NCBI GenBank assembly: GCA_963839405.1 | Contig: CAWIUV010000003.1 | Coordinates: 237,445 to 301,444, forward strand | DNA length: 64,000 nucleotides | Direction of reading: 5' to 3' | Source of the DNA: an uncultured Thermoleophilaceae bacterium | Lineage (GTDB): Bacteria; Actinomycetota; Thermoleophilia; Solirubrobacterales; Thermoleophilaceae | Shown: one piece after another, positions 3,773-60,765 of the stretch | How the letters are laid out: every line of letters begins with the position of its first letter | How positions within the stretch are numbered: position 1 is the stretch's first letter | Program-made: the position numbers and the translations under genes | Notes under the pieces: generated by a model | Seen by the model: only the letters and a program-made list of their open reading frames with translations | Databases searched by the model: none | Told to the model about the DNA's origin: nothing

Positions 3773-3803
3773 TTCTAGGTTCCTCCGTCTTCAGTCTTGT
3801 GAG

Positions 3804-4094: not shown

Positions 4095-4108
4095 AGATAA
4101 ATCCTCCG

Positions 4109-4164: not shown

Positions 4165-4167
4165 GGC

Positions 4168-4572: not shown

Positions 4573-4582
4573 GCGCGGGAGC

Positions 4583-5614: not shown

Positions 5615-5627
5615 GCGGGCGCGCGCC

Positions 5628-6320: not shown

Positions 6321-6330
6321 AGGGAAAAGC

Positions 6331-12800: not shown

Positions 12801-14244
12801 GACGATCCGCGGCTTGAGCTCGGCGAACTCCTCGGACGGGTAGCGCCCGTCGAGCATGTCGAGGACGTTGTCCAGCAGCTTGCGGTCCAGCTCCGCGAAC
12901 GGGTACGCGCGCCTGACCAGGTCGTGCAGCTCGGGCACCTTCCACTCGTCGCCCGTTGCGACGCAGGCGACGATCTGCTGCGCGAGGACGTCGAGCGGGT
13001 TGCGCGGCACGACCGTCTCCTCGATCAGCGCCTCGCGCATCCGCTGAGCGACCACCGCCGACTCGAGCAGGTCGGAGCGGAACTTCGGGAAGATCCGGCC
13101 CTTCGACGTCTCGCCGACGCCGTGCCCGGCGCGGCCGATCCGCTGCAGGCCGCGCGTCACGGACTTGGGCGACTCGACCTGCAGCACGAGGTCGACGGCG
13201 CCCATGTCGATGCCGAGCTCGAGCGAGGAGGTCGCCACGAGGCACGGCAGCTCGCCGGACTTCAGCATCTCCTCGACGACCAGCCGCTCCTCGCGCGCGA
13301 GCGATCCGTGGTGGGCGCGCGCGATGTCGGCGGGCTTCCCGTCCTCGCCCGCCAGCTCGTTCAACCGCATCGCGAGCCGCTCCGCGCCGCGGCGGTTGTT
13401 CACGAAGACGATCGTCGACTTGTGCGACTGGACCAGTTCGAGCAGCTCGGGGTAGATCGCGGGCCAGATCGAACGGCGCGTGGCGCCGCCCGCCGGCGAG
13501 CGGGTCCAGGTCGTCCGTGCCCTCATCCGGCTCGCGCATGTCCTCGACCGGGACCTTGATCTCGAGGTCGAGCGGCTTCCGCAGGCCGGTGTCCACGACC
13601 TTGCACTCGCGCGTCGGGCCCACCAGGAAGCGGCCGACCTCGTCGAGCGGCCGCTGGGTCGCCGAGAGCCCGATGCGCTGCACCGGGTGCCCTGCCTCGT
13701 GCTCGAGGCGCTCGAGCGTCAGCGCAAGGTGTGCGCCGCGCTTGGACTGCGCTACGGCATGGATCTCGTCCACGATCACCCACTCCGCGTCGCGCAGGAA
13801 CTCGCGCGCGCGCGAAGTCAGCATCAGGTAGAGCGACTCAGGCGTCGTGATAAGGATGTCCGGCGGCTTGCGAAGCATCGCCGCGCGCTCCTTCTGCGGC
13901 GTGTCGCCGGTGCGGATCGCCACCGAGATGTCGCCGCCAATGCCCTTGAGCGGTGCGCGCAGGTTGCGCTCGATGTCGTAGGAGAGCGCCTTCAGCGGGG
14001 ATACGTAGACGAGCCGCGTCTTCCGCTCGTCCGCAGGCAGGGGCTCTGCGACCAGCCGGTCGAGGCCCCACAGGAAGGCCGCGAGCGTCTTGCCCGAGCC
14101 GGTCGGCGCGGACAGGAGGACGTGTTCGCCGCCTGCGATGGCCGGCCATGCCTGCTCCTGCGCCCGAGTGGGCTCTGCGAAGGCGCGCTTGAACCAGTCG
14201 CGAACCTGAGGAGTGAAGTTGGCCAGTGGGTCAGCTGAAGGCAC
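9858..14244 (-). pseudogene. lhr: Lhr-type large ATP-dependent DEAH helicase (~1460 aa), three frame switches
   Basis: Motifs LLSAPTGSGKTLAAF, VIVDEIHAV, LSAT and HHGSLAREER..VATSSLELGIDMG, plus the long Lhr C-terminal extension ending ..LAATDPANPYGASLPWP. Pieces are ORFs 12349..14571, 11484..13526, 10124..11590 and 9858..10217, with junctions near 13490, 11590 and 10290. GTG 14244 follows AAGGG. Confidence 0.9.
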
Positions 14245-21974: not shown

Positions 21975-24036
21975 TCAGCTGTGCGCGAGCCCGGCGAGCG
22001 CTTCCGCGCCCTCGAGGACCGCGGCGCGGGCCTCCTCGGGCTCGAGCACCACCGCATCGCCGCTCAGGCTGAGGATCAGGTGCACGAGCCAGTCGGTGCC
22101 CTTGAAGGGCTGCTCCACGATCACGGCCCCGTCCTTCAGCTCCTGCACGACCCGCTTGTCCTCGCGCGCCCAGCGCGCCCGCTCGGGCGACCACCAGATC
22201 CGTGCGACCTGCGAGGCCTCGACCTCGCCGGTCTTCAGCCAGCCGCGCGTGTCGGCCTCGACGCCCTCGCGCGGCTCGAACTCCTCGTCGAGCACGCTGG
22301 CGGAGCGGATGCGGTCGAGCCGGAACGTGCGCGTATCGTCGCGCTCGAGGTCGAACGAGACGACGTACCAGCCCTCACGGCCGTTGGCGAGCTGGTACGG
22401 CTCGATCCGGCGAGTCGAGAAGTCGTCCTCGTTCTCCTTGTAGTACTCGAGCTCCACCAGGCGGTGCGACACGATGCCCTCGCTGAGCACCCGCGCGACA
22501 TCGGAGTCGTCGCCCTTCGCGCGCGTGATCTGGAGGCCGTCCTGGGCGGGGTCCTGCCCGAGCGCCTTGGTGATCTTCTTGCGCGCGGACTCCAGCGAGC
22601 CCTCCGGGATGTGCTCGCCGATCAGGTCGATGGCGGCCACCAGCGCCTTCGCCTGCAGCGGGAGGAGGCGTGCCGGGCGGGCGAAGTTGTCGCCGTAGGG
22701 CTCGGGGTCCACCTCGATCGTGTCGCCGACGACCTCGGCGTACACGACGTAGCTGCCGCCCGCCGAAGTTGACGACGTTGAGCACGTCGATGTCCTCCTG
22801 CAGCTCCTGCTCGGTCACGTTCAGCCGCTCGCAGAGCGGAGCGAGGTCGAGCTTGATGCCCTCGCGCGCAGCCTCGATCAGGATGCTGGCGAGCGTGACG
22901 AGGCGGGCGAACCGCTCAGGGCGGATCGGTGACTCGCCCTTGCCCTCATCGTCATCCGGCGCCGGCCGCTCGGTCTGGCGTGCCTTCGGCTTCGCCGCCT
23001 CGAAGGCGCCGCGATGCCGCTCGACGATCAGCTCCAGCCGCTCGCCGGCGAGCTTGACCAGGTCGGGTGGGTCGAGCAGGCGCGCACGGTCGCCCAGCTC
23101 GAGCACCCAGTCGACGATCGCGCGCGGGTCCGCGTACTCGGTTTCGAAGACCGAGCCGTCCGACGGCGCGTCCTCGACGTCCGCGGCCGGCTGAATCGAG
23201 CCGGCGTGCCCGTAGTGGCGCTCGATCAGCCAGTCGACGCGCGGGGACAGCCAGATCCGGGCGGTGCCCTCCGCGTCACCGAGCTGCCAGTCCGTCCGGG
23301 TGGCGTACCAGCGGTGATCGAAGTCCTCCGGGCGGGCGAAGTCATGCTCGGCCTTCGACGAGTACGACACCTTGCCGCGGATGCGCGAGAGCCGGAATAC
23401 CCGGATGTCCTGGCGCTCGTGCGAGTAGCCGATCAAATAGAACTGCCCGCGCTGGTAGAGGAGCTGGTACGGGTCGACCTTGCGCTTCTCCTCCGCGTCG
23501 CGGCCGATCGTGTAGTAGTCGAAGACGATCGTCTTGCGCCGGAAGATCGCGGTCTCGATCTTCGACAGCCGCTGCGACAGCTCACGCCCGCCGGCCTCCG
23601 CCGTCTGCGCGAGCGCCACCGCCTGGCTGTCGGCGGTTCCCAGGGGCGAGGGCTTGCCCCAGGAGAGCTGCTGGAGCGCGAGCCGGAGCGGCTCGGCGTA
23701 GGCGAACTCGCCGTCCAGCAGGCTGAGCGCCATCCGCAGCGCGCCCAGCTCGGCGTCCGAGAACCTGATCGCCGGCAGGTAGAAGTTCTCCGGCGGGAGC
23801 GTGTAGCTCTCCGCCTCGTACGAGCCGTCGGCGGGCTTGTCCACCTTCAGGTCGATGCCGAGCGACTCGAGCTCCGCGCGGTCGGCGTAGAAGCGGCGCG
23901 CGAAGGCGTCGTCGTTCATGCCCGAGTAGCCCTCCACCTCCTGCTTGATCTCGAGCGCGGTGACCGAGCGCCGCTCCGCCATGAGGAACGAGATCAGGGA
24001 GAGCTGCCGTATGAGCTTTTCGGTGTCTTTTGCCAC
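21975..24036 (-). pseudogene. pafBC: Fused PafB-PafC-type regulator (two HTH-WYL-WCX modules in one polypeptide), one frameshift near 22745
   Basis: Module 1: VAKDTEKLIRQLSLISFLM.. and KVDPYQLLYQRGQFYLIGYSHERQDIRVFRLSRI. Linker ..PAPDDDEGKGES... Module 2: RPERFARLVTLASILIEA.. and RIEPYQLANGREGWYVVSFDLERDDTRTFRLDRI. There is no stop or frame change at the module junction. An extra G in GGCGGGCGG breaks the frame inside module 2. Start is GTG 24036. Confidence 0.8.
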
Positions 24037-24124
24037 TGGCGGCCCAGCATAAAGAGGGTTAAGCGACGCCGGAGCGCCGCTGTGCGACGAAGGCGTGCTC
24101 GCTTTTCCGCTCTTTGCGGGCTGG

Positions 24125-25120
24125 CTAGGCGGCGTCGCGGCGGGCGAAGTACGCCGAGCCGTCCAGTGCGCGGTCGAAGCGGGACCAGCGCTCGCCGTCG
24201 CCAAGCGACTTCTCGAGCCGGTCGAAGCTCCCGAGCTTGCCGCCGAGGTTGTCGATCGCGTGCACGAGGGTGGCCTCCCGCGTGCACGGCACGACCGGGC
24301 TGCCGTGCTCGAGCGAGCCGTGGTGGGAGAGGATGATGTGAAGGACGGCCTCCGCCGTCTCCGGCGGGAAGCCGGGGATCTCCTCGATCTCGCGCCGGAC
24401 GGTGTAGTAGCCGAGCGGGATCTCGCCCTGGAGCTTGCCGGCGTCGCTCAGGTCGATGGCGTCGCCCTCCATCGAGTACGCCTCGATCTTCCCGATGTCG
24501 TGAAGCAACGCGCCGGTGACCGCGACGTCGCGGTCGAGCCCGGGAAACGTGGCCGCCATCGCGCTGACGCCCTGCGCGACCGACAGGCAGTGCTCGAGCA
24601 GCCCGTGCCGGTAGGCCTGGTGGTAGTGCTTGGCCGCCGGCCAGACGCTCCACTTCTCCCAGATCGGGCTGTCGGCGCCCAGGCAGCGGTCGAGCAGCCG
24701 CCGCAGGTGCGGGCACTGGACGGTGCCGATCAGCTCGCGCAGGTCGGCCTCCATCTGCGCAAGGGGCACCGGGGCGCACTCGTGCAGGTCGGCGGCCTCG
24801 TACTCCCCCTCGGCGGCGGCCCGCAGCGTGCGCACCGTGAGGTTGGACCCGAACCGCTCGTCAACGGAGTAGGTGGCCTGAACGATCACGACAGCGCCGG
24901 GGAGGGCCACCTCGGCGACGGCGTCGACGCCGTCCCAGCAGACCGCTTCGATCCGGCCGGTCACGTCGCCGAGCTGGAGCTTCAGGAAGGCATCGCCGTT
25001 GCGCTTGGAGCGCCGGCTGACCTCGCGCACCACGAACGCGGTCTCGACCTGCTGGCCGTCCACGAGGTCGCGCGCGAACACCTTCTCGGTGACGGTGGGG
25101 ATCAGAATTGCCTGCTCCAT
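24125..25120 (-). CDS. YhaM-like 3'-5' exoribonuclease (OB-fold + HD domain)
   Basis: OB part FVVREVSRRSKRNGDAFLKLQLGDVTG. HD part HHQAYRHGLLEHCLSV, ALLHDIGK and ILSHHG. Start MEQAILIP at 25120. Confidence 0.75.
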   Translation of the reverse strand: MEQAILIPTVTEKVFARDLVDGQQVETAFVVREVSRRSKRNGDAFLKLQLGDVTGRIEAVCWDGVDAVAEVALPGAVVIVQATYSVDERFGSNLTVRTLRAAAEGEYEAADLHECAPVPLAQMEADLRELIGTVQCPHLRRLLDRCLGADSPIWEKWSVWPAAKHYHQAYRHGLLEHCLSVAQGVSAMAATFPGLDRDVAVTGALLHDIGKIEAYSMEGDAIDLSDAGKLQGEIPLGYYTVRREIEEIPGFPPETAEAVLHIILSHHGSLEHGSPVVPCTREATLVHAIDNLGGKLGSFDRLEKSLGDGERWSRFDRALDGSAYFARRDAA

Positions 25121-46885: not shown

Positions 46886-47261
46886 ATGTCCGAGCTGATC
46901 CACACCTGTTACCGCATCGGCGACATCGACCGTTCCGTGTCCTTCTACGAGAAGCTCGGCTTCGAGGAGACGGGGCGGTTTCCGATTCGCGACGAGGCGA
47001 TCAACGTCTTCATGGGCCTGCCCGGCGACGGCGCACGGCTCGAGCTGACCTACAACCACGGCGTCGACTCGTACGAGCTCGGCACCGGCTACAACCACAT
47101 CGCGCTGACGGTCGACGACATGGACGGGACGCTCGAGCGGCTCGCCGGAGTGGGCATCGAGCCCGAGAAGCCGCCGTACACGGTGCGCGAGGGCGGCTCG
47201 CGCCTGTGCTTCGTGCGCGATCCCGGACGGCTATCGAATCGAGCTGATTGAGAAGGGCTGA
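46886..47261 (+). pseudogene. gloA: Lactoylglutathione lyase (glyoxalase I), frame lost in the last 12 codons
   Basis: MSELIHTCYRIGDIDRSVSFYEKLGFEE..GYNHIALTVDDM... The expected C-terminus DPDGYRIELIEKG-stop is present but one nucleotide out of frame (GATCCCGGACGGC). TAGCGT lies 8 nt before the ATG. Confidence 0.85.
47226..47261 (+). repeat. gloA 3'-end repeat, copy R1 (native)
   Basis: GACGGCTATCGAATCGAGCTGATTGAGAAGGGCTGA (DGYRIELIEKG-stop). Confidence 0.9.
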
Positions 47262-47666
47262 AGCTCGGGCTGCTCCGACAGCCCGCGGCTTCGATGGCGT
47301 CGCCGCGGTTCGAGTAGGCTTGCGCACGATCTTGCCGTCGCGCAGAGTGAACAGGTCTCGTTTTCGTGCTCGATAGGGCCACCGCTCTCATGCCACATGC
47401 AGTGTGCCCGGAGCACTGACGCGGCCCTCCCTGAGATCGATGATCGCTCGGCTTCGATGCGCAGGTCCGCCAAGGCCCGGAGGTACTCGCGCATCGCGGC
47501 CCTCATGCCGTCGAAGCGCGAGCCACCGCCCCTCCATGCCCGGCGTTGCAGAGCCGATGCGCGAATACTCGGCATCGGCGTCGAAGAAGTCCGTCGAGCT
47601 GAGATCGCCGTGATCCAGATGCTCATAGAGCCGAGCGCACGGTATCTCGACGTTCTCCTGCGACAT
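47231..47666 (-). pseudogene. NTF2/SnoaL-like protein, unit 1 (decayed, at least 3 frame switches)
   Basis: Starts MSQENVEIPCARLYEHLDHGDLS... Later blocks (GSRFDGMRAAMREYL.., FTLRDGKIVR, AIEAAGLSEQ) lie in other frames. It reads into the antisense of gloA repeat R1, where TAG 47231 terminates it. Confidence 0.7.
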
Positions 47667-47683
47667 CGCCCGCGCAGTATCGC
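47646..47683 (-). promoter_or_regulatory. Conserved junction module, copy P1 (truncated): GATACT box, 9 nt, then ATGTCGCAGGAGAACGTCGAG
   Basis: CTCGACGTTCTCCTGCGACATCGCCCGCGCAGTATCGC on the + strand. Confidence 0.6.
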
Positions 47684-47689
47684 CGGTAT

Positions 47690-47732
47690 CCGGACGGCTA
47701 TCGAATTGAGATAATCGAGAGGAAGAAGCTAG
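47690..47732 (+). repeat. gloA 3'-end repeat, copy R2 (diverged)
   Basis: CCGGACGGCTATCGAATTGAGATAATCGAGAGGAAGAAGCTAG (DGYRIEIIERKKL). Confidence 0.8.
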
Positions 47733-48200
47733 GGAGGGCGCTCCGGGCGGCTTCGTACGGCGCTTCGGCCTCAGACGGACGAACTACTCCACGCACGCCG
47801 TTCGGCCTCGAGAGCTTCGCTCTCCCGCGTACGACGGGCCATCGGATCACAATTCCATCCCGGAACTGATTCACGTGCAGACTGGCGGCATCGAGGGGGA
47901 TGTCGCACCAGCGCCGTGGACCGCATCGACGGACGGGCCCTCCCAGATGCGGACTCCCAGTCGGTATCGTCCCGAATCGCAGCGTGAAGCAGGAGAGGTG
48001 CCGAGTCAACTGCGCAACCACCGCTTCTATCCCATCTGCTCAGCCTCTGGAACCCCTCCAGGCGGCTAGATCGCGATGGAGAGGCCTACGTGCATCATGA
48101 AAACTCGCCTGCCGGCATCTAGCTCGCGATCTAACGCCAAACTTGGCGGCGTCGAGCAACCCATGCCCTCAGTGCGACGGCTCCCAGGTGTATGGGCCAT
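47733..48200 (-). pseudogene. NTF2/SnoaL-like remnant, unit 2 (lower GC, several stops, conserved start module missing)
   Basis: Only fragments are recognisable (IRDDTDWES, HVNQFRDGIVIR, ESEALEA), scattered over three frames. Confidence 0.35.
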
Positions 48201-48239
48201 GCGGACGGCTATCGAATTGAGCTGATCGAGAAGGGCTGA
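48172..48239 (+). repeat. gloA 3'-end repeat, copy R3 (~68 nt)
   Basis: ..GTGCGACGGCTCCCAGGTGTATGGGCCATGCGGACGGCTATCGAATTGAGCTGATCGAGAAGGGCTGA aligns by eye with the last ~70 nt of gloA. Confidence 0.85.
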
Positions 48240-48251
48240 CGTCCCGGCGAC

Positions 48252-48650
48252 CTACTCCGGCAGTCCGGCGGCTTCGAGGGCGTCTTGCTCGACGTTAAAG
48301 GTCCATGCTGGATCGCCTTGCGTGCCCTAAGTCGGCCAGACGTGCCAGATGGGACTCGGCCCGGCGTCGCTTCCCTCCACAACGTGAAGCTTTGCCCGAG
48401 CGTGACGATCACAAGTCGCCGAGGTAGCGAAGCTCCGGCACCAGTGGAGTATTCGCTGAGGGCGTCATAGACGTCAGGCCGCGCGAAAGCTCCCGCATCT
48501 CGTCGAAGCGGTATCGAGCGCGCCCCGGCCAGCCGAGGCGCATGTGAGAGCAAATAGTCTCGGGAACCAGGTCGCCAAGAGTCTCGATATCTCGGCGGTC
48601 GTACGCGTCAATGAAGGCGCACGGACAATCTCGACGTTCTCCTGCGACAT
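48252..48650 (-). pseudogene. NTF2/SnoaL-like protein, unit 3 (decayed, at least 3 frame switches)
   Basis: MSQENVEIVRA / FIDAYDRRDIETLGDLVPE.. / ..VIVTLGQSFTLW.. / TFNVEQDALEAAGLPE-stop, in different frames. Confidence 0.7.
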
Positions 48651-48702
48651 CGCCCGCCCAGTATCGCGCGTGTTCCTAGTGCCAGGGGTTGCGTTAGCCC
48701 GG
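48629..48702 (-). promoter_or_regulatory. Conserved junction module, copy P2 (74 nt)
   Basis: TCTCGACGTTCTCCTGCGACATCGCCCGCCCAGTATCGCGCGTGTTCCTAGTGCCAGGGGTTGCGTTAGCCCGG. Confidence 0.6.
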
Positions 48703-48709
48703 TACGGCG

Positions 48710-49105
48710 CTACTCGAGCAGCCCTACGGCTTCCAGGGCTTCATCGTGGTTCCAGAAGTACTCCTGCGTGATGACCTTGCCCTTACGGAAGGTGAGGATC
48801 ACGCTGAACCCCATCGTCTGATCCGGGATCTCTCCCGACACATGCCATACAGCTCGCACGAGGACCCGGTTGCCGACATCGACGGGCTCACCGATCACTT
48901 CCAAGCTGTCCCGGCTCCAGGCTTCGCGAAGAATCTCCAACGAGCGCACCACCGCATCACGCCCAACGGACGGTCCAGCCTCTGGCCAGCCCTCCAGGTG
49001 GTGCATGACAACGGCCGGGTCGTACATCTCACGCATAGGGGCGAAGTCCCCCGCGTTGTACGCGTTCAAGACCCGCAGGGCGATCTCGACGTTCTCCTGC
49101 GACAT
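48710..49105 (-). CDS. NTF2/SnoaL-like protein, unit 4 (the only intact copy, 131 aa)
   Basis: MSQENVEIALRVLNAYNAGDFAPMREMYDPAVVMHH..GNRVLVRAVWHVSGEIPDQTMGFSVILTFRKGKVITQEYFWNHDEALEAVGLLE. This is the internal ATG of track ORF 48710..49399. Confidence 0.8.
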   Translation of the reverse strand: MSQENVEIALRVLNAYNAGDFAPMREMYDPAVVMHHLEGWPEAGPSVGRDAVVRSLEILREAWSRDSLEVIGEPVDVGNRVLVRAVWHVSGEIPDQTMGFSVILTFRKGKVITQEYFWNHDEALEAVGLLE

Positions 49106-49157
49106 CGCCCGCGCAGTATCGCGCGTGTTCCTAGTGCTAGGGGTTGCGTTAGCCCGG
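49084..49157 (-). promoter_or_regulatory. Conserved junction module, copy P3 (74 nt; drives the intact unit 4)
   Basis: Differs from P2 at only 2 of 74 positions, by eye. Confidence 0.6.
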
Positions 49158-49595
49158 AAACGGCGAGCTACTCCGCAGCCCCACGGCTTCGAGGGCCTTC
49201 GCTGGCTCGACGTAGACGCGCAGCCGACGATCCCTTGCCGGCCCGGAGCTGCCCAAACAGGCGACGATCGTCTGCTGTACTTCCGCGCCGCTCTCCCTGC
49301 CCGTGCCGCGAACCTCCACGATGGCGACGACCTGATCGCCGGCGTCAGCATCTCCACGTGGTACGAAGCTGACGAAAGTCCTCGTCCAGACTCGAACACC
49401 TCGCGGGCGGACTGCGCCAGCCCCTCGATAACCGTCGAATGTTCCCCCGAGTTCAGCGATCGGACGCGGTCTGCCGGATTTCGACCTCTGGATCGACGAA
49501 CTCCAGGATCTCAAGGCCTCAGCAACCGTCTCCGGCCTGGCCAGGAATTCTCGTAGAGCCGCGCGCAATGAAGTCTCCACGTTCTCCTGCGACAT
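49149..49595 (-). pseudogene. NTF2/SnoaL-like protein, unit 5 (decayed, about 6 frame switches)
   Basis: MSQENVET.., ARLYEN, DPEVEIRQ, REVFES/LDEDF/VSF/YHVE and GDQVVAIVEVRGTGRESGAEV..EPAKALEAVGLR alternate between frames. Confidence 0.7.
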
Positions 49596-49632
49596 CGCCC
49601 GCGCAGTATCGCGCGTGTTCCTAGTGCCAGGG
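49574..49632 (-). promoter_or_regulatory. Conserved junction module, copy P4 (runs into gloA repeat R4)
   Basis: TCTCCACGTTCTCCTGCGACATCGCCCGCGCAGTATCGCGCGTGTTCCTAGTGCCAGGG. Confidence 0.6.
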
Positions 49633-49691
49633 CTCCCAGCTGTTGCGCACATCCCGACGGCTACCGAATCGAGCTCATCGAGAAGGGCTGA
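49624..49691 (+). repeat. gloA 3'-end repeat, copy R4 (~68 nt)
   Basis: GTGCCAGGGCTCCCAGCTGTTGCGCACATCCCGACGGCTACCGAATCGAGCTCATCGAGAAGGGCTGA. Confidence 0.85.
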
Positions 49692-49740: not shown

Positions 49741-51027
49741 ATGCGCAAGAAGCGCAGACTCGCACTTCCACTAGTACTGGTCGCACCCATCCTCGTTGCC
49801 GGCCTGTTCGCCCCTGCCGCTGACGCAGCGCGCGGCGAGTGCCTTCCCGGCCAGAAGCAGCCGAAGTGTCAGCTGTCGACGGCGAAGGTCGTGGGCATCA
49901 CCGACGGCGATACCGTCAGGGCGAAGATCAAGCAGGGGTCGAGCTGGTCGAAGCCCACGCAGGTCCGCCTCACCGCCGTGCAGGCGATGGAGCTGACCGC
50001 GTTCGGCCGCAAGTCGGGGCGGCAGGGTGAGTGCCATTCCGTCGAGGCCGCGGAGCGGCTCGAGGAGCTGATCAGGACGAAGACCGTCCGCCTTGCCGCC
50101 CTCAGGAGCGGGGGCCAGCTGCGCGGCATCGCCTTCAAACAGGGAGGCGGCTGGACGGACGTCGGCTCGATTCTGATCCGCGAGGGCCACGCGCTGTGGG
50201 ATCCCCACCCCAGGGAGTGGGCGTGGAACAAGCGCTACGCGAAGCTGGCGGGTCAGGCGGCGAGCCGGGGCGCGCGACTGTGGGACACGGACTCGTGCGG
50301 AGCCGGCCCGGCGCAGGCGAGCGGACTCGAGCTCAAGGTGAAGTGGAACGCCGACGGAGCGGACGGGAGGAACGTGAACGGCGAGTTCGTTCGCATCAGC
50401 AACACCGACTCTTCCGATTCCGTCTCCCTCGCCGGCTGGTGGGTGCGCGACAGCTTCGATCGCCGCTACAAATTCCGCCAAGGGACCACCGTTCCCGCCG
50501 GTGGGTCGATCGAGGTCCACGTGGGGAGGGGACAGAACGACGCGAGCACCTTCTACTGGGGGTTGCGCGGTTCGGTCTTCGAGAACGTCGTCGGCGGCGC
50601 CAAGGGCATAGGCGACGGCGGGTACCTGTTCGACCCGGACGGTGACCCGCGTGCGTGGCAGCTGTACCCCTGCTACGTCGACTGCGCGGAGCCGCTCAAG
50701 GGCAAGGTGGACTTCACCGTGAACAAGACGAGCCCGGAGTCTGCGCAGATCGCGAACAAGTCGAGTGGGCCCATCGACCTGTCGGAGTACGAGGTGGAGA
50801 GCGCGCCCTACTTCTACGAGTTCGCACGCGGCACGGTCCTTCAGGCAGGCGAGGCGATCACGCTCGTCGTCGACCAGAACCCGAACGCGGATACGCAGTT
50901 CGTGAAGGGTTGGGGCTTCAACGGTTCCCTCTTCGCAGACAGGAAGGACGCCGTAACACTGCGGAATCCGCTCGGCGCGCCCGTAGTGTGTGACCGCTGG
51001 GGCGGCGCCCGCTGCCCGCGCGTCTAG
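49741..51027 (+). CDS. Secreted thermonuclease (SNase)-like nuclease with two lamin-tail (LTD) domains
   Basis: Signal MRKKRRLALPLVLVAPILVAGLFAPAADA. SNase block VVGITDGDTVRAKI..VRLTAVQAMEL..ECH..REGHALW. LTD blocks NGEFVRISNTDSSDSVSLAGWWVRDS..GDGGYLFDPDGD, plus a second LTD. Intact. Confidence 0.8.
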   Translation: MRKKRRLALPLVLVAPILVAGLFAPAADAARGECLPGQKQPKCQLSTAKVVGITDGDTVRAKIKQGSSWSKPTQVRLTAVQAMELTAFGRKSGRQGECHSVEAAERLEELIRTKTVRLAALRSGGQLRGIAFKQGGGWTDVGSILIREGHALWDPHPREWAWNKRYAKLAGQAASRGARLWDTDSCGAGPAQASGLELKVKWNADGADGRNVNGEFVRISNTDSSDSVSLAGWWVRDSFDRRYKFRQGTTVPAGGSIEVHVGRGQNDASTFYWGLRGSVFENVVGGAKGIGDGGYLFDPDGDPRAWQLYPCYVDCAEPLKGKVDFTVNKTSPESAQIANKSSGPIDLSEYEVESAPYFYEFARGTVLQAGEAITLVVDQNPNADTQFVKGWGFNGSLFADRKDAVTLRNPLGAPVVCDRWGGARCPRV

Positions 51028-51054: not shown

Positions 51055-52029
51055 ATGCGCCGGACGCGCTTCCACGCACTCGCGGGCCTGCTGCTCGCGC
51101 TTCTGCTTCTTGCCCCTACGGCTGAGGCACGGCGCGGTCCCTGCATACCTGGGATCAAGCGGCCGACGTGCTACGTCTGGACCGGCAAGGTGATGCAGGT
51201 CGCGGACGGCGACACCGTCAACGTGCGCGTCAGACAGAACGGGCGCTGGTCGGAGCGGCGCGACGTTCGCATGACCGGGGTTCAGGCGATGGAGCTCACG
51301 AGCTACAGCCGCGTCGGCCGAGGCCGCCGCGGCGCCTGCCACGCGCGCGCCGCCGCCGAGCGGCTCGAGCGGCTGCTCAAGGGCCCGCGCAACAAGCGGC
51401 GCAAGATCCGGCTTGCGGCGCGGCGGCGCGACAGCATGACGCAGGGCCCGCGCGGCCGCCTGCGGCGCGCGATCGCGTTCCGCCAGGACGGGCGGTGGCA
51501 CGACGCCGGCGCGGTCCTCATGCGCGAGGGCCACGGCCTCTGGGACCCGAACCGCAAGGAGTGGGCGTGGAACAAGCGCTACTCGAAGCTCGCCCAGCTC
51601 GCATCGCTTGCCGGCCGGCGGATCTGGAACACGAGCGCCTGCCGCACGGGGCCGCGCCAAGCCGCGCCGCTCACCGTCAGGGTCAGGTGGGATGCCAAGG
51701 GCTCTGACGGCGCCCATCCGAACGGCGAGTGGATCCGGATCAAGAACGGCGACCCCGTCAATCCGGTCGGGCTACGTGGATGGTGGGTCCGTGACTCGGC
51801 GCTGCGCCGGTACAGGTTCCGCCGAGGCGCGGTCATCCCGCCGGGCAGGTCGATTCGCGTGCGCATCGGTCCCGGCCGCGACAGGCCAAGGACGTTCCAC
51901 TGGGGACTGCCCGATCCGATCTTCGAGAACGTGAAACGACGCCGCGGCATCGGCGACGGCGGATATCTGTTCGACCGGCACGGGGACCTGCGCGCGTGGC
52001 GCATGTACCCGTGCCGGGTCTTCTGTTAG
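51055..52029 (+). CDS. Secreted thermonuclease (SNase)-like nuclease with one LTD domain (paralogue of the previous gene)
   Basis: Signal MRRTRFHALAGLLLALLLLAPTAEA. VMQVADGDTVNVRV..VRMTGVQAMEL..REGHGLW. NGEWIRIKNGDPVNPVGLRGWWVRDS..GDGGYLFDRHGD. Intact. Confidence 0.8.
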   Translation: MRRTRFHALAGLLLALLLLAPTAEARRGPCIPGIKRPTCYVWTGKVMQVADGDTVNVRVRQNGRWSERRDVRMTGVQAMELTSYSRVGRGRRGACHARAAAERLERLLKGPRNKRRKIRLAARRRDSMTQGPRGRLRRAIAFRQDGRWHDAGAVLMREGHGLWDPNRKEWAWNKRYSKLAQLASLAGRRIWNTSACRTGPRQAAPLTVRVRWDAKGSDGAHPNGEWIRIKNGDPVNPVGLRGWWVRDSALRRYRFRRGAVIPPGRSIRVRIGPGRDRPRTFHWGLPDPIFENVKRRRGIGDGGYLFDRHGDLRAWRMYPCRVFC

Positions 52030-55000
52030 CGGCGGCGGATTGCCAGTCCGTCGAACGACACGACACCGCGCAGCACTCGCAGCCTGAACCGCAGTGAGCG
52101 CTTGTCGGTGCGGTTGATGACCGCGACGACGCGCCGGTGGCGCACGCGCTTCGAGCGGAACGAGACGACTCGCCGCTCGCCGCCGCGAGCGCGGACGACC
52201 GCCTTGCCGCCGTTCGGCCCGGTGCGGCCGACCAGGTACACGCGGCCGCCGCCACGCGTCCTGAAGCGAAGCGTCGCGCCGCGTTCCGAGGTCTGCGTGT
52301 AGCCGCCACGCCACGCGCGCCGGCTCGTGACTCGCGTCCAGGCCGACGAGTACTGGCGCTTCTTGCCGCGGTCGTCGTACGGGAACACGATGCGCGCGTA
52401 CTGCCAGTCGCTCGTGATGCCGCTCTTGCCGACCGCACGGATGCGCAGCAGATACGTCTCGCCGATCTTGCCCCGCTTGAACCTGATACTTCTTCACGCT
52501 CGGGCTCATCCGCGGCCGGAGATGCGTGAACGTCCGGTTCGTCCCGCGGCCGGTGCGCCGGTACTGGAGCTGCAGGTAGTCGATCTGGTTCCTCCCGTTC
52601 GCACGGATGCGAACCGGGACCCTGCGCCCGTTCCGCGTGCTCGTGCTCGCGAGCAGCGGCGTCTTCAGGCTCGCACCGAAGCCGACGTTCACCGGGCCGG
52701 GCGGAGCGGGCTCGTTCGGCAGCGCCGGGCGCGACTTGCGCTCGTATTGGCAGTCGACGAGGTTGCAGAACAGGATGTAGCCCGTGTAGGTGACCGCGTA
52801 CGGCTCTAGGCCGAGCGGGTGGTCGTACTCGTCGCTCGGCTGCGGTAGAAGCGCGCCGAGGATCCGGATCTTGCCCTGGCCGACGGCGAGTTCGCCGAGC
52901 GTCGACCGCTCCGGAACGGCCGCCGCGTCGCGCGCGCCGGAGTTCGCTGAGCCGCCGACTGCACGGCCGCCGGCCCCCGTCCACGTCAGGCTGTGTGATG
53001 TCGAACTGGCGCGCGAATGACGCATCGCCGCCGTCGGCGCCCTGGATCGCAAAGCCAATCGGGGTCGATTCGTACGTCTGGCGTCTCATCCCCGTGTTGA
53101 AACGTGAGCCGAGCTGGTCCACGTTCTTCGCGAGCGGATCGTCGAGCGTCTCCTTCGTCTCGCACGTGCCGTCGTCGTTGAACGTGTCGCAAACCTGGAA
53201 CGACGTTTGCCCGACGTAGACGACGCGCTCGTTGATCGCGCTGCCGGGGACGCTCGTCAGCTCTGCCACCGCCTTCAGTGCCCCGTCGGTGAGCACGAGG
53301 TTTCCGCCGCCCTCGACCCAGCTGCGCAGCTTGCGCCATCCACGCGTCCTTCTGCTCGACGGTGTACGTGCTCGCGGGCGGCGGCGGCTCGGGCTCGAAG
53401 GTCACCGTCCCTGTAAACGGGTCGGCGGCCGCGGCCGCGACGCAGTTGATCGCGACGATGACGTACTCGCCCGGGCGGGGGAGCTGGATCTGGAGCGTCT
53501 CTACGGTGCCCGGCGGGTTCGAGTCGGTGGAGCCCGCCAGCTCGCGCTTGCCGCCCTCGACGCGGAAAACGGCCAGCGCCCAGTCGTTGGTCGGCTGAGA
53601 CCACTCGATCGTCGCAGTGAACGACCGGTTGAGCTCGTTCGGCCCGATCGTGAATGTGTGCTCGTCGGTGGCCTCGGCATTCGTGGCGGCCGGCGTGCAG
53701 CCGTCCGCCGTCTGCCCAGGCGTGGTCGGCTCATCGTTCGGGAACGTGAAGTCGGCGGTGGGGCCACCGGTGGGCGCGGCCTGGCCCTTGTACGCGCCGG
53801 TGTAGCCGGGCAGCGCCTCATCGGCCAGGACGATCGTCCGGAACGAGTCGAGCGACTGCTCGCCGGAGATGACCTTCGCCGGATCGATCGGGTCGAACTC
53901 GTCGTTCGCCGCCTGGGCGTCGCCGTTCAGGTCCCTGAAGAAGTCCGTGTTCGCCACGTCGTAGCCGGCGAGGAATGGCGGCTCATCGCCACCCGTTGCG
54001 CCGTCGGCGGTCGCCGGGTCGGAGGTGAAGTCGACGCTGAAGGACGGAATTCCACCCTCAGCGCTCACGACCGCGCGCCACTGGATCTGGTCATCGCCGA
54101 GGCGGCTCTTGGGCCGGTTGACCGCCGCCGTCAGGCCGGCCTGCGCGTAGCCGAGTCCCTGGTTGTAGTCCTCCGCGACCGTGATCCAGTCGTCGTCCTG
54201 CACGACGCCGACGTGGTCGTCGCAGTTCCTGCACTGGACCTCCAGCGTGGCGATGCCGCTGCCGATGCCCTGGACGTTGGACGCGGTGACATCCACCCGC
54301 ATGCCGCCGTTGAAGGTGTCGGCGTCGCGCTCGACCTCGAACTCGAAGACGCTTCCTTCGGGTCCAGGCGTCCCTGGCGTGGACGGGATGTCGTCCTGCG
54401 CCGTCGTTCCGGGCGGCGGACCGGGCTGGACCTGCGACTCCGTGCGGGACAGGCGGGTGTTCGGCACGTAGCCGCTCTTCACCGGGGACCGAGTAGGCCG
54501 TTCCGGGCGGACGCAGGATGTCGGCGATGTGCGAATAGATGATCGCCTTGTTGCCCGCGACGTGCAGCTGCTCGCCGTGGGGCTCGAAGGCGATGTTGCG
54601 GTCGAGGTGCGAGAACGACATCTCGTTGTCGATCCCGTCCGCGCCCAGGCCGAGGCGCGAGTCGAACCAGCTGCCGACGTCGCCCGTGGTCGTGTAGTTG
54701 ATCGTGTCGTAGACGGAGCCCCACGTCTGCGCGTAGATGGCGTCGCAAGTGGCGCCGAGGGTGTCCTCGCAGACCGTGGCCTCCTGGTCGTTCTCGATGA
54801 TGTACGGCGACCACTTCGTCGCTTCGTACTGCGCACGGTTGATCAGCTTCGACGCCTCGCGGATCCGGTAGTCCTTGTCGATGTCGTGCCGTCCGTGCGG
54901 CATGAGCGTGTACGAGAGCGCGTCCGCGAACGGCTGTCCGTGAAGGTCGTCGCCGGCCGCGAACTGTCCGCCGCGCTCCTCGACCTGGCGGTAGAAGTTC

Positions 55001-55836
55001 ATGAACGCGCGCGTCTCGGGCTCGGAGGCTCCGCTGTAGGGGCGGAACGTGTAGCCGATGTCCGGCCAGTCGCGGTTCGGGTCGATCCCGTTGCCGTTGT
55101 AGCGCTGGAAGAAGACCCCGGGGCCCTTCTCCGTGTCGCCGACCGACCCTCGCCGCCAGCCGTCCGGGTTCGGGAGCGTGAAGTAGACGATCGTGTTCGC
55201 GAGCGCCGCCTGCCACGAGGGTGCGTTCTCGCGCACCTCCTTCGGGAGGATCGGATCCTCGCCGCGTCCCTCCGCGGCCGCGGTGACCATCTCCTCCATC
55301 GCACGGATCCCGCCCTCCGCGCCGGCGCGTTCGATGCCGTGGATCGAAAGTGAGAGCGCGTACCGCTTCTTGTCTGCATCCGGGACGTTCTCATCAGTCA
55401 CGCGGATGACGATCAGGTCTGACTTCTGTCGCCCGAGGTCCGTGGTTGGCAGCCCTGCGGACTGGTACTCCTCCTTGGGAGTCCACTCGAGCTTCGACAG
55501 GTTGTTGCCGGGCCACATGGCGTTGCCCGCCTCTGTGCCGCTTCCTTCGCCCTTCTTGCCGTCGAGCGGCAGCACCTCCATGTAGCGCCGCCAGTCCTCG
55601 TTCTGGTTCATGAACGTGATGGCGTCGTTGAACTCCTGCCACTGGATGTGGTTCGTGGCGTTGGTGCGCCCTCGCGAGGCCGGGTCGCAGTTCTGCTGGC
55701 AGACGGCGAGCGGATCGGGGAACACGGCGCCGTAGGCCTGGTACTGCGGCATCGACGTGGCGACCGGCCCGGCGGCTGCCGACGCCGGAACGATCAGCAG
55801 GACAGACGCAGCCAGGACGGCGAAAGTCAGACGCAA
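52026..55836 (-). pseudogene. Large secreted M14-family zinc carboxypeptidase-like protein (~1270 aa) with C-terminal beta-rich domains, four frame switches
   Basis: Signal MRLTFAVLAASVLLIVPASAAAG. HxxE block SLSIHGIERAGAEG. NGIDPNRDWP. Pieces are ORFs 54091..55836, 52986..54836, 51833..53296, 51772..53058 and 52026..52388. Junctions near 54480, 53320, 52985 and 52490. Confidence 0.75.
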
Positions 55837-55946
55837 GGCAGCAACCCCCAGTTACCCCAAACCAGTTTTTCGAGAGCGCGATGGTAAAGGTCGAGGCGCC
55901 AAGACGCCTCAATTCCCCTTCACGCAGCGTCGCTAGGATCGCCGCC

Positions 55947-57440
55947 ATGCTCTCTCCCAGGCTCTCCCATGCAGTCCCTGCCCTCGTCGCCGCGGCCGCG
56001 ATCGCATTCGCCGGCTGCGGTGGGGACGACGACGCGGCCTCGCCGCTCGACGAGGCCCTCGGCTACCTGTCGGAGGACGCCGGCTTCGCCCTGGTCGCGT
56101 CCACGGACCTCCAGGACTACGACGACCTGCGCGAGATCCTCGACAAGTTCCCGTTCGCGGGCCGCGCCGAGGATCTGTTGAAGCAGAGCATCTCCCAGGC
56201 GGGATTCGACTTCGAGGAGGACGTGCAGCCGCTGCTCGGCAACGAGGTCGTCATCGGGACCGACGAGAACGCCAGCTTCATCGACAGCGGGTCGGATACC
56301 CCGTTCGTCATGGCGATCGAGACCGAGGACGCCGGCAAGCTCGAGGACCTCATGACCGAGGACGCCCGCGACGCGGGCGAGAGCGAGGGTTACGACGTCT
56401 TCCAGGGCCAGGAGGAGGACACCTGGTTCGCCCTCAAGGACGAGGTGCTCGTGCTGTCGGACAGCGAGGAGACGCTGAAGGACGCCCTGGCCCAGCGCGG
56501 CGAGGACGACCGGCTCACCGAGGACGACCTGGACGCGGCCTTCGAGGATCTCCCCGAGGACGCGCCGATCAAGGCGTACGCCAACGTCAAGGAATTGCTC
56601 GCCGCTTCGCCGGATTCGGAGAAGGCGCTCGAGGTCGAGTGGGTCGACCACATCGAGACGTTCGGGCTGAGCGCCGACGCCACCGATGACGGCGTCGCGC
56701 TCGACTGGTCCGTGCGCACCGATCCCGAGGGACTGGCCGATGAGGACCTTCCGCTTGCGAGCGGCAGCGAGGCGCCGCAGCTGCTCGAGCGTGACGAGGG
56801 CAGCGCCGAGATCGTGCTCGGGTTGCGCGACCCGGCGCAGATCGTGAACTTCGCGCTCGCCACGGCCGAGGTCGTCGATCCCGCGGGCTTCGCCGAGGTC
56901 GAGAGCGCGAAGCAACAGGCCGGGCGGCGGCTCGGCGTCGACATCGACCAGGACGTGATCGCCCAGCTCACCGGCGACGTGTCGGCCGTGGTCTCGATCG
57001 ATGGCAAGTTCGGCGTGCGGGCGGAGCTCGACGACGCGGCTGCCTTCGAGCGCACGCTGGCGAAGATCATGGACGGGCTGCCCGAGTTCTCGGACGACGT
57101 CACGATCGCCAAGGCGGGTGGGCGCTACTACACCCTCTCCACGGAGGACGGTAAGCGCTACGCGCTCGGCGTTGCCGAGGAAGCGCTCATCGTGGCCAGC
57201 GACCTGCCGACCGCCACGCAGGTGGCCAGCAGGCCGGTCGTCGATGCCGAGGGCCAGGAGGGCGCCTTCGTCGCGTCCGCCGATGCCGAGCAGCTCGCGA
57301 ACGCCGTGCTCGGCATGGCTGCCGGCGGGCTCCAGGGACTCGGCGGCAGCCTCTTCACGGGGCCGCTCGGCGACCTGCTTACGTCGGCTAGCGCCTCGAC
57401 CGACGGCCTGACCGGCCGGCTGGAACTGAAGATCGAATAG
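55947..57440 (+). CDS. Acidic lipoprotein (resembles the DUF3352 family), intact
   Basis: Lipobox AIAFAGC after MLSPRLSHAVPALVAAAA. TAGGAT lies 7 nt before the ATG. The family assignment is tentative. Confidence 0.55.
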   Translation: MLSPRLSHAVPALVAAAAIAFAGCGGDDDAASPLDEALGYLSEDAGFALVASTDLQDYDDLREILDKFPFAGRAEDLLKQSISQAGFDFEEDVQPLLGNEVVIGTDENASFIDSGSDTPFVMAIETEDAGKLEDLMTEDARDAGESEGYDVFQGQEEDTWFALKDEVLVLSDSEETLKDALAQRGEDDRLTEDDLDAAFEDLPEDAPIKAYANVKELLAASPDSEKALEVEWVDHIETFGLSADATDDGVALDWSVRTDPEGLADEDLPLASGSEAPQLLERDEGSAEIVLGLRDPAQIVNFALATAEVVDPAGFAEVESAKQQAGRRLGVDIDQDVIAQLTGDVSAVVSIDGKFGVRAELDDAAAFERTLAKIMDGLPEFSDDVTIAKAGGRYYTLSTEDGKRYALGVAEEALIVASDLPTATQVASRPVVDAEGQEGAFVASADAEQLANAVLGMAAGGLQGLGGSLFTGPLGDLLTSASASTDGLTGRLELKIE

Positions 57441-58529: not shown

Positions 58530-60765
58530 CTATGCAGCCTGCATGCGGGTCATCACTTCGAGCGCGCCGTTCTTGTTGAGCGGCTCGTTCAAATTGCCGC
58601 ATTTCGGCGATTGGACGCACGACGGGCAGCCGAGCTTGCAGGGGCACTCGGCGATGAGGCGCCGCGCGTCATCCACGAGCGTCTCGAACATGCGGAAGCC
58701 GATCCGCGTGATCCCCACGCCGCCCGCGTGGCCGTCGTAGATGAAGACGGTGGGCCGTGCGGTCTGCGGGTGTGAGTTCGTCGAGAGCCCGCCGATGTCC
58801 CAGCGGTCGCACATGGCGATCAGCGGCAGGACGGCGATCTGGGTGTGCTCGGCAGCGTGCAGCGACCCCAGCAGCACCTCGAGCGGGAACTCCGAGCGCA
58901 GGAGCTCGTCGGGGACCTCGTACCAGAGGGCCTGGGTGACGAACTGCTGCTCGGGCAGGTCCACCGGGAGCAGGTCGAGCACCTCGTGGTCGGCCACCCG
59001 CTTCTTCTGGAACGCGACCACCTGCTCCGTTACCGAGACCACGCCGAACGAGAGCTCGACGCCGTAGATGGTGCGGCGGTCGAGCACCTCCTCGATCCAC
59101 GTCTCCGTCTCCTTCTTCGGCTGCGTGTACCAGTCGCCGGAGAACGGCCGGACGAGCGCGCGGCTGCCGCGCAGGTCGAGCTCCTCCACCTCGTAGCTCT
59201 GGCCCATGTGGAGGTAGACCGCCCCCGGATGGATCGTCGTGTGGGCGCGGCCCAGCTCGACCGAGCCGATCAGCTCGCCGCCGTCCGCCTCGACGACGGC
59301 GATCGAATCGATCCCGGCCGAGCGCAGCGAGATCCGCCCGGCTGGGAACTCGTCTGTGCGCGGCGTGTAGCGCCCGGCTCGCTCACGCAGCCGCCCCTCG
59401 GCGACCAACCGCTCGGCGTACAGCTCCCAGCGCGGGCCGAGCGTGTCGGCATCGTCCGCGGTCAGCGGCAGCTCATATGCCGCCGCGACCAGGTGCTGGA
59501 CGTGGATCTCCTCGGACTCGTGGTCGAGGATCGCGTGCTCGACGGACCGGTCGAGGAACTCGTCGGGATGGCGGCAGAAGAATTGGTCGAGCGCGTCGTC
59601 GCCGGCCACGTACAGCGCCAGCCCGGTTTGGCGGCGGCCGGCGCGGCCCCACATCTGGCGCAGGCTCGCCACCGTGCCCGGGAACGTCACGCATATGGCG
59701 GCGTCGAGGTCGCCGACGTCGATCCCGAGCTCGAGCGCGTCGGTGGCCACGACCGCGAGCAGCTCGCCCTCGGACAGCCGTCGCTCGATCTCGCGCCGCT
59801 GGGTCGGCGTGTAGCCGGCGCGGTACGGCGCGATCCGCTCGGCCAAGTCCGCTCGGCCGGCGTCCTCGAGGCGGAGCTTCGTGAACCGCTGGATCAGCTC
59901 GACCCCGCGGCGCGACTTGAGGAAGCAGATCGTGCGCACCTCGGCCTGCATCAGCTCCGCGAGGAGCTGCGCCGCCTCCGACAGCGCCGACCCGCGGATG
60001 CCCGCGTCCTCGTCGATGAGCGGCGGGTTCCACATGACGACCTGGCGCTCGGCGTGCGGCGCGCCGTCGCGGTCCACCAGCCCGAGGTCGAGGCCCGTCA
60101 GGCGCTCGCCGAGCTCGAGCGGGTTGCCGATCGTCGCACTGGTCAGCACGAACCGCGGCTCGCGTGCCATACGCGCGCGCGAGCCGGCGCAGGCGCCGGA
60201 GCACGTTGCCGACGTGCGAGCCGAACACGCCGCGATAGACGTGAGCCTCGTCCACCACGACCCAGGCGAGGTTCGCCAGCACGTCGCCCCAGTTGCGGTG
60301 ATGGGGCAGCACCCCCACGTTCAGCATGTCCGGGTTCGTGAGGATCAGGTTCGACCGCCCGCGGATCGCGCGGCGCTCCTCCTTCGGCGTGTCGCCGTCG
60401 TAGATCGCGTGGCGCAGGAACGGCGCGCGCAGCTCGTGGAGCTTCCGCGCCTGGTCCTGCGCGAGCGCCTTCGTCGGGTAGAGGTAGAGCGCGCGTGCGC
60501 GTGGGTCGCGCGCGAGCGTGTCGAGCACGGGCAGGTTGAACGCGAGCGACTTGCCGCTCGCGGTGCCGGTCGTGACGATCACCGGTCCGGCCATCGCCGC
60601 CTCGAACGCCTCGGCCTGGTGCGAGTAGAGCTCGTCGATGCCCGCTCCGCCGAGCGACTCCCGCAGGGCGGGATGGAGCTCGTCAGGCAGCGCGGTGGTC
60701 TCGGCCGGCTTCGCGCCGTAGCGGGCCTGGCGCACGAGCTGCTCGCCGCGGCCCGCCTCGATCAC
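58530..60765 (-). pseudogene. DEAD/DEAH-box helicase with C-terminal DUF1998/MZB 4-Cys domain (MrfA/YprA-like), one frameshift near 60170
   Basis: [22 protein letters not shown] and TSATIGNP. C-terminal CPCKLGCPSCVQSPKCGNLN. The two halves are ORFs 59473..60765 and 58530..60170. Confidence 0.85.

Follow-up and report, generated by a model that had tools for sequence, protein, structure and literature searches.

A tandem array of small SnoaL-like genes and displaced gloA-like gene ends in a Thermoleophilaceae genome: evidence bearing on serial insertion at a coding 3' end

A gloA-like gene followed by five SnoaL-like units

The window analysed here, a 64,000-nucleotide stretch of contig CAWIUV010000003.1 (assembly GCA_963839405.1, positions 237,445 to 301,444) from an uncultured Thermoleophilaceae bacterium, contains a gloA-like gene of the VOC, or glyoxalase-I-like, type (46886..47261, plus strand; Pfam Glyoxalase, E 2e-17) that is followed by an array of small genes interspersed with copies of its 3' end. 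Self-comparison of the window resolves the 2.43 kb on the 3' side of this gene into five head-to-tail units of about 455-530 bp, with essentially the boundaries given by an initial annotation made from the sequence alone. As that annotation had also proposed, a SnoaL_2/NTF2-like gene lies on the minus strand of every unit, and the GC content of the array (62-65%) is lower than that of the flanks (68-73%). Direct repeats of the gloA end stand on both sides of the array and inside it.

The best NCBIfam models for the gloA-like gene are those of lactoylglutathione lyase, against which it scores 92.7 and 81 bits (cut-offs 165 and 120 bits, respectively). With scores under these cut-offs it does not qualify as a GloA (glyoxalase I) equivalog, and the Pfam Glyoxalase threshold is passed; the safe name is 'gloA-like VOC protein', shortened below to gloA. 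The gene end that now occupies the functional position, R1 (47223..47261, plus strand), consists of the codons (P)DGYRIELIEKG and a stop.

Unit 1 (47262..47690, minus strand) is a full-length SnoaL-family gene with its ATG at 47666; it has lost its stop codon and contains two or more frameshifts. Matches to the family hidden Markov model (HMM) in three frames together cover HMM positions 1-140, and the promoter-like motif of the unit, GATACT-N9-ATG, abuts the gloA-end copy R2 directly. Unit 2 (47733..48170, minus strand) is a truncated SnoaL-like pseudogene (tblastn, 36% identity, residues 26-129, E 9e-10, 47794-48108), devoid of the first ~25 codons and of the 5' module described below; it is homologous to gene C of a syntenic relative, L001, and its truncation is genuine. 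Unit 3 (48240..48702, minus strand) is again full-length, with a start at 48650, at least two frameshifts and an 80-nt 5' module at 48623-48702. The sole intact open reading frame (ORF) among the five unit genes is the SnoaL_2 gene of unit 4 (unit 48703..49157, minus strand; gene 48710-49105, 131 aa; Pfam SnoaL_2, E 5e-9, 37 bits, cut-off 27), whose 5' module occupies 49078-49157 and whose protein is recorded in identical form in a second assembly. The gene of unit 5 (unit 49158..49653, minus strand) runs from 49595 down to 49149, and the unit also contains a 5' module at 49568-49632 and a decayed gloA-like arm at 49633-49653. The gene has an open frame in which a deletion of 1 nt has removed the usual stop, and its middle part probably contains a frameshift: the family HMM matches in one frame with E 1e-23, and the single-frame translation has no Pfam match. 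In units 1, 3 and 5 the HMM matches extend over the whole length of the family, spread over two or three reading frames. One or two frameshifts in each of these three units may be assembly noise and, since the indel noise of the assembly has a similar density, we do not call them pseudogenes.

The unit proteins are only 25-36% identical to one another (38-58% for the unit bodies in DNA), and the unit genes are therefore old paralogues instead of recent duplicates. The family keeps its two ends, MSxEN at the N-terminus and EALEAAGLxE plus stop at the C-terminus, around these diverged bodies, and its profile matches solved NTF2-like proteins (3ebt, E 2.5e-17), SnoaL-type cyclases and ketosteroid isomerase. 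Also conserved is a 5' module of 60-80 nt, made of the gene start ATGTCGCAGGAGAAC (MSQEN) and ~50 nt upstream, which is 95% identical between units 3 and 4, 78% in unit 5, shorter (~45 nt) and 64% identical in unit 1, and missing from unit 2. Within it, GATACT, 9 nt before the start codon, can be read as a -10-like box; the motif is found at 47646-47683, 48630-48668, 49085-49123 and 49575-49613. The upstream motif together with the gene start, GATACTGSGNGGGCGATGTCG, recurs in metagenome-assembled genomes (MAGs) of Solirubrobacterales and Thermoleophilaceae, on more than 120 stretches; of the 226 occurrences in the loci examined, 142 head ORFs of 115-150 aa. In the form GATACTG(C/G)G(N)GGGCG-ATG-TCG it is conserved upstream of SnoaL_2-family genes at more than 200 sites in loci L005-L124.

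Three displaced copies of the gloA end accompany the units on the plus strand. R2 (47691..47732; DGYRIEIIERKK...) is diverged, with 62% identity over 47 nt in the self-comparison, and has lost its stop; its counterpart in L001 still reads DGYRIELIENG plus stop. R3 (48171..48239) has a core at 48202-48239, ADGYRIELIEKG plus stop, preceded by a decayed gloA-like arm of ~30 nt (GGCTCCCAGGTGT...). R4 (49654..49691), the distal copy, reads PDGYRIELIEKG plus stop in frame, abuts the downstream flank directly and differs from R1 by three synonymous and zero nonsynonymous changes. A degenerate 36-nt pattern for DGYRIELIEKG plus stop finds the native end (47226-47261), R3 (48204-48239) and R4 (49656-49691), with none expected by chance (100 shuffles). 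The pattern thus confirms R3 and R4 and the self-comparison confirms R2, so that all three partial copies reported earlier stand. Compared with R1, the R copies are 62-87% identical over 47 nt and, within the DGYRIELIE codons, R3 and R4 differ from it at synonymous sites only.

The remaining two boundaries, between units 3 and 4 and between units 4 and 5, hold no convincing gloA-end copy, and units 3 to 5 may for this reason represent a single three-gene block. At unit boundaries the initial annotation had seen a truncated trace of the gloA end in the 15-nt sequence GTTGCGTTAGCCCGG; the element is real as a conserved boundary motif, and its similarity to the gloA end is too weak for a decision on whether it derives from that end. 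The decayed arm to the left of R3 and R4 is ~5 nt shorter than the matching stretch of gloA, a shortening common to the window, L001 and two further related loci (L128 and L047). The arm is thus cassette sequence that was inherited, and not a fresh copy of the resident gene.

Empty and occupied sites among relatives

Over 9.4 kb of downstream flank, the syntenic relative L001 (an ENA contig) shares 92% identity with the window, and it has the same layout with five units, the first four being intact genes (SnoaL_2, E 1e-13 to 1e-16, or identical to that of unit 4) and the fifth damaged. Segment by segment, the gloA end and the downstream flank are each 94% identical. The bodies of units 1 (55%) and 5 (49%) are unrelated to their positional counterparts, those of units 2 and 3 reach 64% and 66%, and unit 4 is identical at 454 of its 455 nt (99.8%) between flanks of 92-94%, that is, with one mismatch where ~29 would be expected at a 94% background. 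The 5' end of unit 1 (first ~22 codons and promoter) together with R2 is 92% identical to unit D of L001, the module of unit 5 together with R4 is 87% identical to its counterpart, and R3 has none. Given such unequal identities and the missing R3, content varies cassette by cassette between close relatives. Some of the breakpoints fall inside conserved gene ends, as in unit 1 and unit D of L001, which have the first ~22 codons in common.

These breakpoints bring in the main rival to serial insertion at the gloA end, namely homologous recombination alone: excision or unequal crossing-over between R copies, Campbell-type re-insertion, or import of a whole array, with no dedicated recombinase. 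The bodies of units 1 and 5 have clearly been swapped between conserved gene ends, which is homologous recombination or gene conversion; the 99.8% identity of unit 4 stops near conserved boundaries; and, given two R copies, unequal crossing-over can alter copy number. The failure to find a recombinase, described below, also speaks for it.

A scan of metagenome contigs yielded 80 gloA loci at 75-94% protein identity, 55 of them with at least 700 nt downstream of the gene. At 47 of the 55 there is neither a displaced end nor a SnoaL gene downstream. In L129 (93% identical), for instance, a DUF3352 gene starts at the gloA stop codon; the 8.6 kb that separate gloA from the DUF3352 gene (55881-57440) in the window are absent from L129, where the two genes abut. 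Within those 8.6 kb, beyond the array, two tandem paralogous genes (49741-51027 and 51055-52029) encode apparently secreted proteins with Lamin Tail Domains (Pfam) that, by eye, have a signal-peptide-like start and a staphylococcal-nuclease-like N-terminal part with a DGDT motif.

Five of the 55 loci carry a displaced end 0.4-1.06 kb downstream of gloA. The intervening cargo comprises, in L172, a weak HicA match with an adjacent HicB-like ORF (by eye only) and a plus-strand SnoaL_2 gene; in L174 and L201, a 143-aa protein without an assigned family, L201 having two displaced ends; in L181, a plus-strand SnoaL_3 gene; and in L191, a plus-strand SnoaL_2 gene. The L174 protein had looked cupin-like by eye, which Pfam and NCBIfam do not confirm. 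A further MAG locus, L047 (gloA 81% identical in DNA), presents in succession gloA, one minus-strand SnoaL gene, its promoter, a displaced end (DDYRVELLESSGG plus stop) and unrelated genes. Three SnoaL genes and one decayed end are found in L128 (94% protein identity, same upstream GH3 gene), and L166 and L176 have one SnoaL gene with no detectable displaced end. Unit number thus varies among relatives, from five in L001 and three in L128 to none at most sites, and the identical array in all relatives that, according to the initial annotation, would have meant ancient stable paralogues is not what we see: sites are empty or filled differently.

This distribution bears on two further explanations. 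The first is tandem duplication of a convergent gloA/SnoaL module by unequal crossing-over, followed by loss of most of each gloA, which the initial annotation had offered as one of two possible origins. The head-to-tail arrangement, the similar unit lengths and the common 5' and 3' gene ends would all suit it. However, duplication would leave no gloA end beside the downstream flank, where R4 lies, and it cannot place a lone gene between a pair of gloA ends, the situation in L047, L172, L174, L181 and L191; separate deletions would all have to end at the same left edge. The unit proteins are just 25-36% identical, whereas the non-coding R copies keep 62-87% identity to R1 over 47 nt and, in the case of R3 and R4, differ from it within the DGYRIELIE codons at synonymous sites only. 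Nor is identity even along the unit, as it would be after a recent duplication, the modules of units 3 to 5 (78-95%) standing far above the unit bodies. Contradicted by the distal R4, by single genes between two ends and by the age of the paralogues, duplication is largely refuted, with a very slim chance of being correct.

The second is an ordinary, stable array of paralogues with gene-converted intergenic regions, in which gloA-like pieces would be kept for the SnoaL promoters, for example as -35 regions. The lineage-wide upstream motif of the family, arrays lacking gloA ends in L002, L004 and L125, and a -35-like TCGATA read inside R2, 17 nt from the GATACT of unit 1, are in keeping with this idea. 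Against it, the site is empty in most relatives, content and copy number vary between close ones, the R copies are conserved at the codon level in the gloA frame and not at the promoter level, and a promoter scan gave no consensus promoters. We regard a stable array as very improbable.

Seven displaced ends (R3 and R4 of the window, R2 and R4 of L001, and those of L172, L174 and L181) were compared with the functional end over the nine codons DGYRIELIE, giving 24 synonymous and 2 nonsynonymous differences, where random changes would be nonsynonymous in 77% of cases (P = 1.5e-13). Since the differences are almost all synonymous, each copy was once a working gene end; and since an untranslated copy decaying after insertion would have gained mostly nonsynonymous changes, the divergence predates the joining. 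Read in this way, the two ends of a pair must descend from gloA genes that were both functional and belonged to diverged lineages. Identity between paired ends over 42 nt is 64-86%, and their longest identical runs measure 6-23 nt (6 nt in L181). Such a pair would be a poor substrate for RecA, lying below the identity that this enzyme normally uses, and is the expected outcome if an integrating element brings along its own variant of the target's end.

For homologous recombination alone, these figures are a difficulty: the identity of the paired ends and the length of their runs would fall below what RecA usually needs, the synonymous-only pattern places divergence before joining, and the model gives no account of how, in five or more independent lineages, unrelated cargo genes first came by such an end. 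We consider this rival unlikely as an account of the whole array.

Probable serial insertion at the gloA end and the search for its machinery

Taken together, the empty sites, the flanked single inserts in independent lineages, the distal position of R4, the synonymous differences and the varying content of relatives at ~92% identity support serial insertion at the gloA end. We propose that small cassettes lacking a recombinase entered one after another at a target formed by the last ~36-45 nt of the gloA-like gene, a stretch that begins with the DPDGY codons and ends with the stop. Each incoming cassette would bring its own copy of the gloA end, and recombination close to the repeat's left edge, in the region of CC(C/G)GAYGG, would join the resident gene to the cassette-borne end and so regenerate the ORF, the formerly functional end being pushed downstream to survive as an R copy. 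Under this scheme R4 would be the oldest and original end, R2 and R3 would be ends displaced later, and units 3, 4 and 5 would probably have entered as one three-gene block. The cargo consists of small NTF2/SnoaL-like proteins, each gene with its own promoter-like GATACT-N9-ATG. Later, gene bodies would have been swapped between paralogues through the conserved 5' and 3' ends, and some units would have decayed. The joining would be performed by a site-specific recombinase acting in trans, its gene lying at another site of the genome or on a visiting element, after the same principle as in cis-mobilizable elements, integron cassettes and Xer-dependent dif modules. We infer this enzyme, as none was found in the cassettes, in the window ORFs or beside gloA in relatives; its identity and type, the order of events and any circular or other intermediate belong equally to the conditional part of the scheme.

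Insertion with regeneration of the target, whatever the enzyme, is in our judgement the probable origin of the array. For the complete statement, trans-acting site-specific recombinase included, the chances are a little short of even. Of the serial site-specific insertion that the initial annotation had named as its second option, target-regenerating insertion thus stands, whereas 'site-specific' keeps the status of an inference.

Several observations weigh against serial insertion by such a recombinase. No recombinase is present in any cassette, nor does a Pfam scan find a recombinase domain among the 45 window ORFs, as the initial annotation had already remarked, nor do the first ORFs that follow gloA in 10 relatives include one. 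An integrase beside a gloA-end attP was not found in viral contigs or in plasmid and phage collections, within their limited sampling, and neither excised circles nor other direct signs of mobility have been seen. The boundaries between units 3 and 4 and between units 4 and 5 hold no clear gloA-end copy, and unit 1, which as the neighbour of gloA should be the newest, is one of the damaged units. The cassette of L174 and L201 has diverged in step with gloA (83% in both) and has therefore long been stable. The cargo, moreover, is nearly all NTF2-like, which a cargo-blind system would not predict. Finally, the 99.8% identity of unit 4 could come in part from cross-strain assembly or polishing, if both contigs share a sequencing project.

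Other searches also returned negatives. Scans of viral contigs with the gloA-end pattern gave a sole match, to an unrelated VOC gene on a low-GC contig; a BLAST search of plasmid and phage collections with the whole array gave none; and no relics of mobility genes were detected in the units. Literature searches for integrons with SnoaL genes, for integrons in Solirubrobacterales and for gloA as an integration site retrieved nothing relevant.

A further concern is that the array might be an assembly artefact, produced by the collapse or chimeric joining of repeats in a noisy assembly of metagenomic long reads. Compared with L001, where the M14 peptidase gene is one 1000-aa ORF, the window shows ~2 single-nucleotide indels per kb in this gene. 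Several housekeeping ORFs are split or fused: the Lhr helicase is in pieces, the M14 peptidase is split, the N-terminus of a Fapy-glycosylase is fused to GDPD, and PCMT is fused to NUDIX (8372-9865, 4583-5662, 10124-13526, 52986-55836 and 58530-60170). Together with the indels this points to assembly indel errors, and both the window and the L001 contig look like long-read assemblies by their names and indel density. The frameshift in gloA and some of those in the units may be errors of the same kind. Nevertheless, L001, an independent assembly of a relative, has the same architecture, and flanked single inserts recur in six or more further assemblies of separate projects, several of which look short-read from their contig names. 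L047, for example, has a SPAdes-style name, and most single-insert loci are, on the same grounds, probably short-read assemblies. An artefact is thus an extremely improbable source of the array. Elsewhere in the window, the neighbouring ORFs 21975-22745 and 22375-24204 both have WYL and WCX domains, typical of regulators.

The frameshift in gloA is due to one extra G at ~47224-47225 (GATCCCGGACGGC as against GATCCCGACGGC in L001), which displaces the frame of the last 12 codons and may be assembly noise. It sits exactly where an end of the resident type (CCC GAC) would be joined to one of the cassette type (CCG GAC, as in R2 and R3), giving GATCCC-G-GACGGC, and it could be a recombination scar instead of a sequencing error.

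More broadly, Thermoleophilia (Solirubrobacterales and relatives) may harbour an undescribed cassette system that uses the coding 3' end of a gloA-like gene as attachment site and is served by a recombinase in trans, a proposal that we hold as doubtful and advance tentatively. In such a system, each single-gene cassette, itself devoid of a recombinase, may bring a functional replacement end, in an integron-like manner but at a recombination site of another type. The system may also be linked to a twin-hairpin repeat that flanks members of the same SnoaL family in related genomes.

This repeat is a composite of ~45 nt, CCGCTTTGGACGAAAAGCGG and CCGCTTTGCATGGAAAGCGG separated by 4-9 nt, whose stems co-vary between copies, with z-scores down to -3.9 when folded as single-stranded DNA (ssDNA). 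It is found in L021, L039 (6205-6270), L059 (nine sites, 251-6388), L027, L079 and L056 (3620-3700). Copies are spaced 0.35-1.9 kb apart between small genes, many of the same SnoaL family, and often lie beside tRNA genes. They may be sites of the repetitive extragenic palindromic (REP) type or attC-like sites. The related loci, 1.06 Mb in all, contain 134 matches; as the window contains none, the repeats are rejected as bounds of its units. Nor are flanking direct repeats general to SnoaL cassettes, as only 9 of 115 arrays lie beyond the 99% null, mostly through hairpin repeats. L004 has, in a different genomic setting, an array of two SnoaL genes between the copies of a direct repeat of ~80 nt (9897-9976 and 10977-11060), next to a tRNA-like sequence and the truncated end of an EamA-type transporter; the second of these copies is joined to what is left of a SnoaL start codon. 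In L061, downstream of a hairpin-flanked SnoaL gene (4393-4791, minus strand) and near a tRNA gene, an ORF starts with MNYVGIDWAYGRAAF, which by eye resembles the N-terminus of an IS110-family transposase.

Likeness to known accretion and cassette systems

The arrangement recalls the tandem accretion of elements, including cis-mobilizable elements (CIMEs), at the 3' end of a conserved gene, as described for ICESt1/CIME at fda in Streptococcus thermophilus and for islands at ssrA in Dehalococcoides (PMC5704250, PMC3146451). In both cases, on our reading of the array, a conserved gene receives the insertion at its 3' end and a substitute for that end from the element; the displaced ends are kept as direct repeats (attL/attR), elements stack at one site and members without an integrase rely on one from elsewhere. 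The repeats R1-R4 of the window and the flanked inserts of L047, L172, L174, L181, L191 and L201 are of this kind. The gloA units, in contrast, measure 0.4-1 kb, carry one small gene (up to three) and contain no relics of integration or transfer genes, whereas CIMEs are decayed multi-kb integrative and conjugative elements (ICEs) or integrative and mobilizable elements (IMEs). A cognate integrase-bearing element for the gloA array was found neither at gloA in the 10 relatives nor in the viral, plasmid and phage collections, sampled to a limited extent, so that an origin of the units by decay of such elements finds no trace. To our knowledge, a VOC or gloA gene has not been reported as an integration target.

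With integrons and with clusters of attC sites lacking integron-integrases (CALINs), which need no adjacent integrase, the array shares single-gene cassettes of ~0.5 kb devoid of a recombinase, set in one orientation and stacked at one attachment site, as well as a content that varies between close relatives. The window units have one shared orientation, one ORF each and a conserved GATACT-N9-ATG; the orientation of the cargo differs in L172, L181 and L191. Small NTF2-like and toxin-antitoxin genes are typical integron cargo, and our literature search on cargo of the NTF2-like/SnoaL type returned nothing. Unlike attC sites, however, the boundaries show no imperfect palindrome: eight boundary segments folded as ssDNA have z-scores of -0.75 to +1.44, and an inverted-repeat search found no palindromes there. 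A GTTRRRY / RYYYAAC core pair is lacking, the single near-match GTTAGCC having no inverse partner, and so is an intI gene. In place of a 7-nt core, the repeats consist of ~40 nt from the end of a coding gene, and the cassettes bring their own promoter-like motif. Membership among integrons is consequently rejected, and the integron is kept as an analogy.

Small accessory modules are also moved by the Xer system in Acinetobacter plasmids, where dif modules have no recombinase of their own and the host recombinase is thought to be the mover (PMC6449649, PMC13141974). As there, the gloA units are small accessory-gene modules without an enzyme of their own, dif modules being shuffled between replicons. 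They differ in that the array is chromosomal and confined to one gene, and in that its repeats are direct copies of a gene end which, by inspection, do not resemble the 28-bp XerC-spacer-XerD sites. No dif-like 11-6-11 palindromic site was seen, again by inspection, in the R copies or at the boundaries, and dif modules were set aside as a candidate.

The orphan toxin-tip/immunity modules of cdiA and rhs loci offer a last parallel, in that 3' fragments of a main gene alternate with small genes and displaced ends pile up downstream. Unlike these, gloA is no toxin gene, the repeat lacks a variable domain and encodes just the last 11-12 residues, which are conserved, and no evidence ties SnoaL proteins to immunity.

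If confirmed, the gloA array would be a third route to cassette accumulation besides integrons and dif modules, one in which single small genes are collected with no recombinase in the cassette, by targeting and then repairing the end of a protein-coding gene. It would raise the question of an enzyme that recognises ~40 nt of coding sequence and joins partners that are just 64-86% identical, in an abundant soil lineage of which hardly any member has been cultured and about whose mobile elements little is known. The pairing of gloA with a displaced end is a possible handle for 'cassette PCR' (polymerase chain reaction) or for read mining of the accessory gene pool. For annotation, the lesson is that short gene-end 'pseudogene fragments' can be scars of att sites. 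By analogy, then, the array would work like CIME accretion, and the scale of its units would be closer to that of integron cassettes or dif modules.

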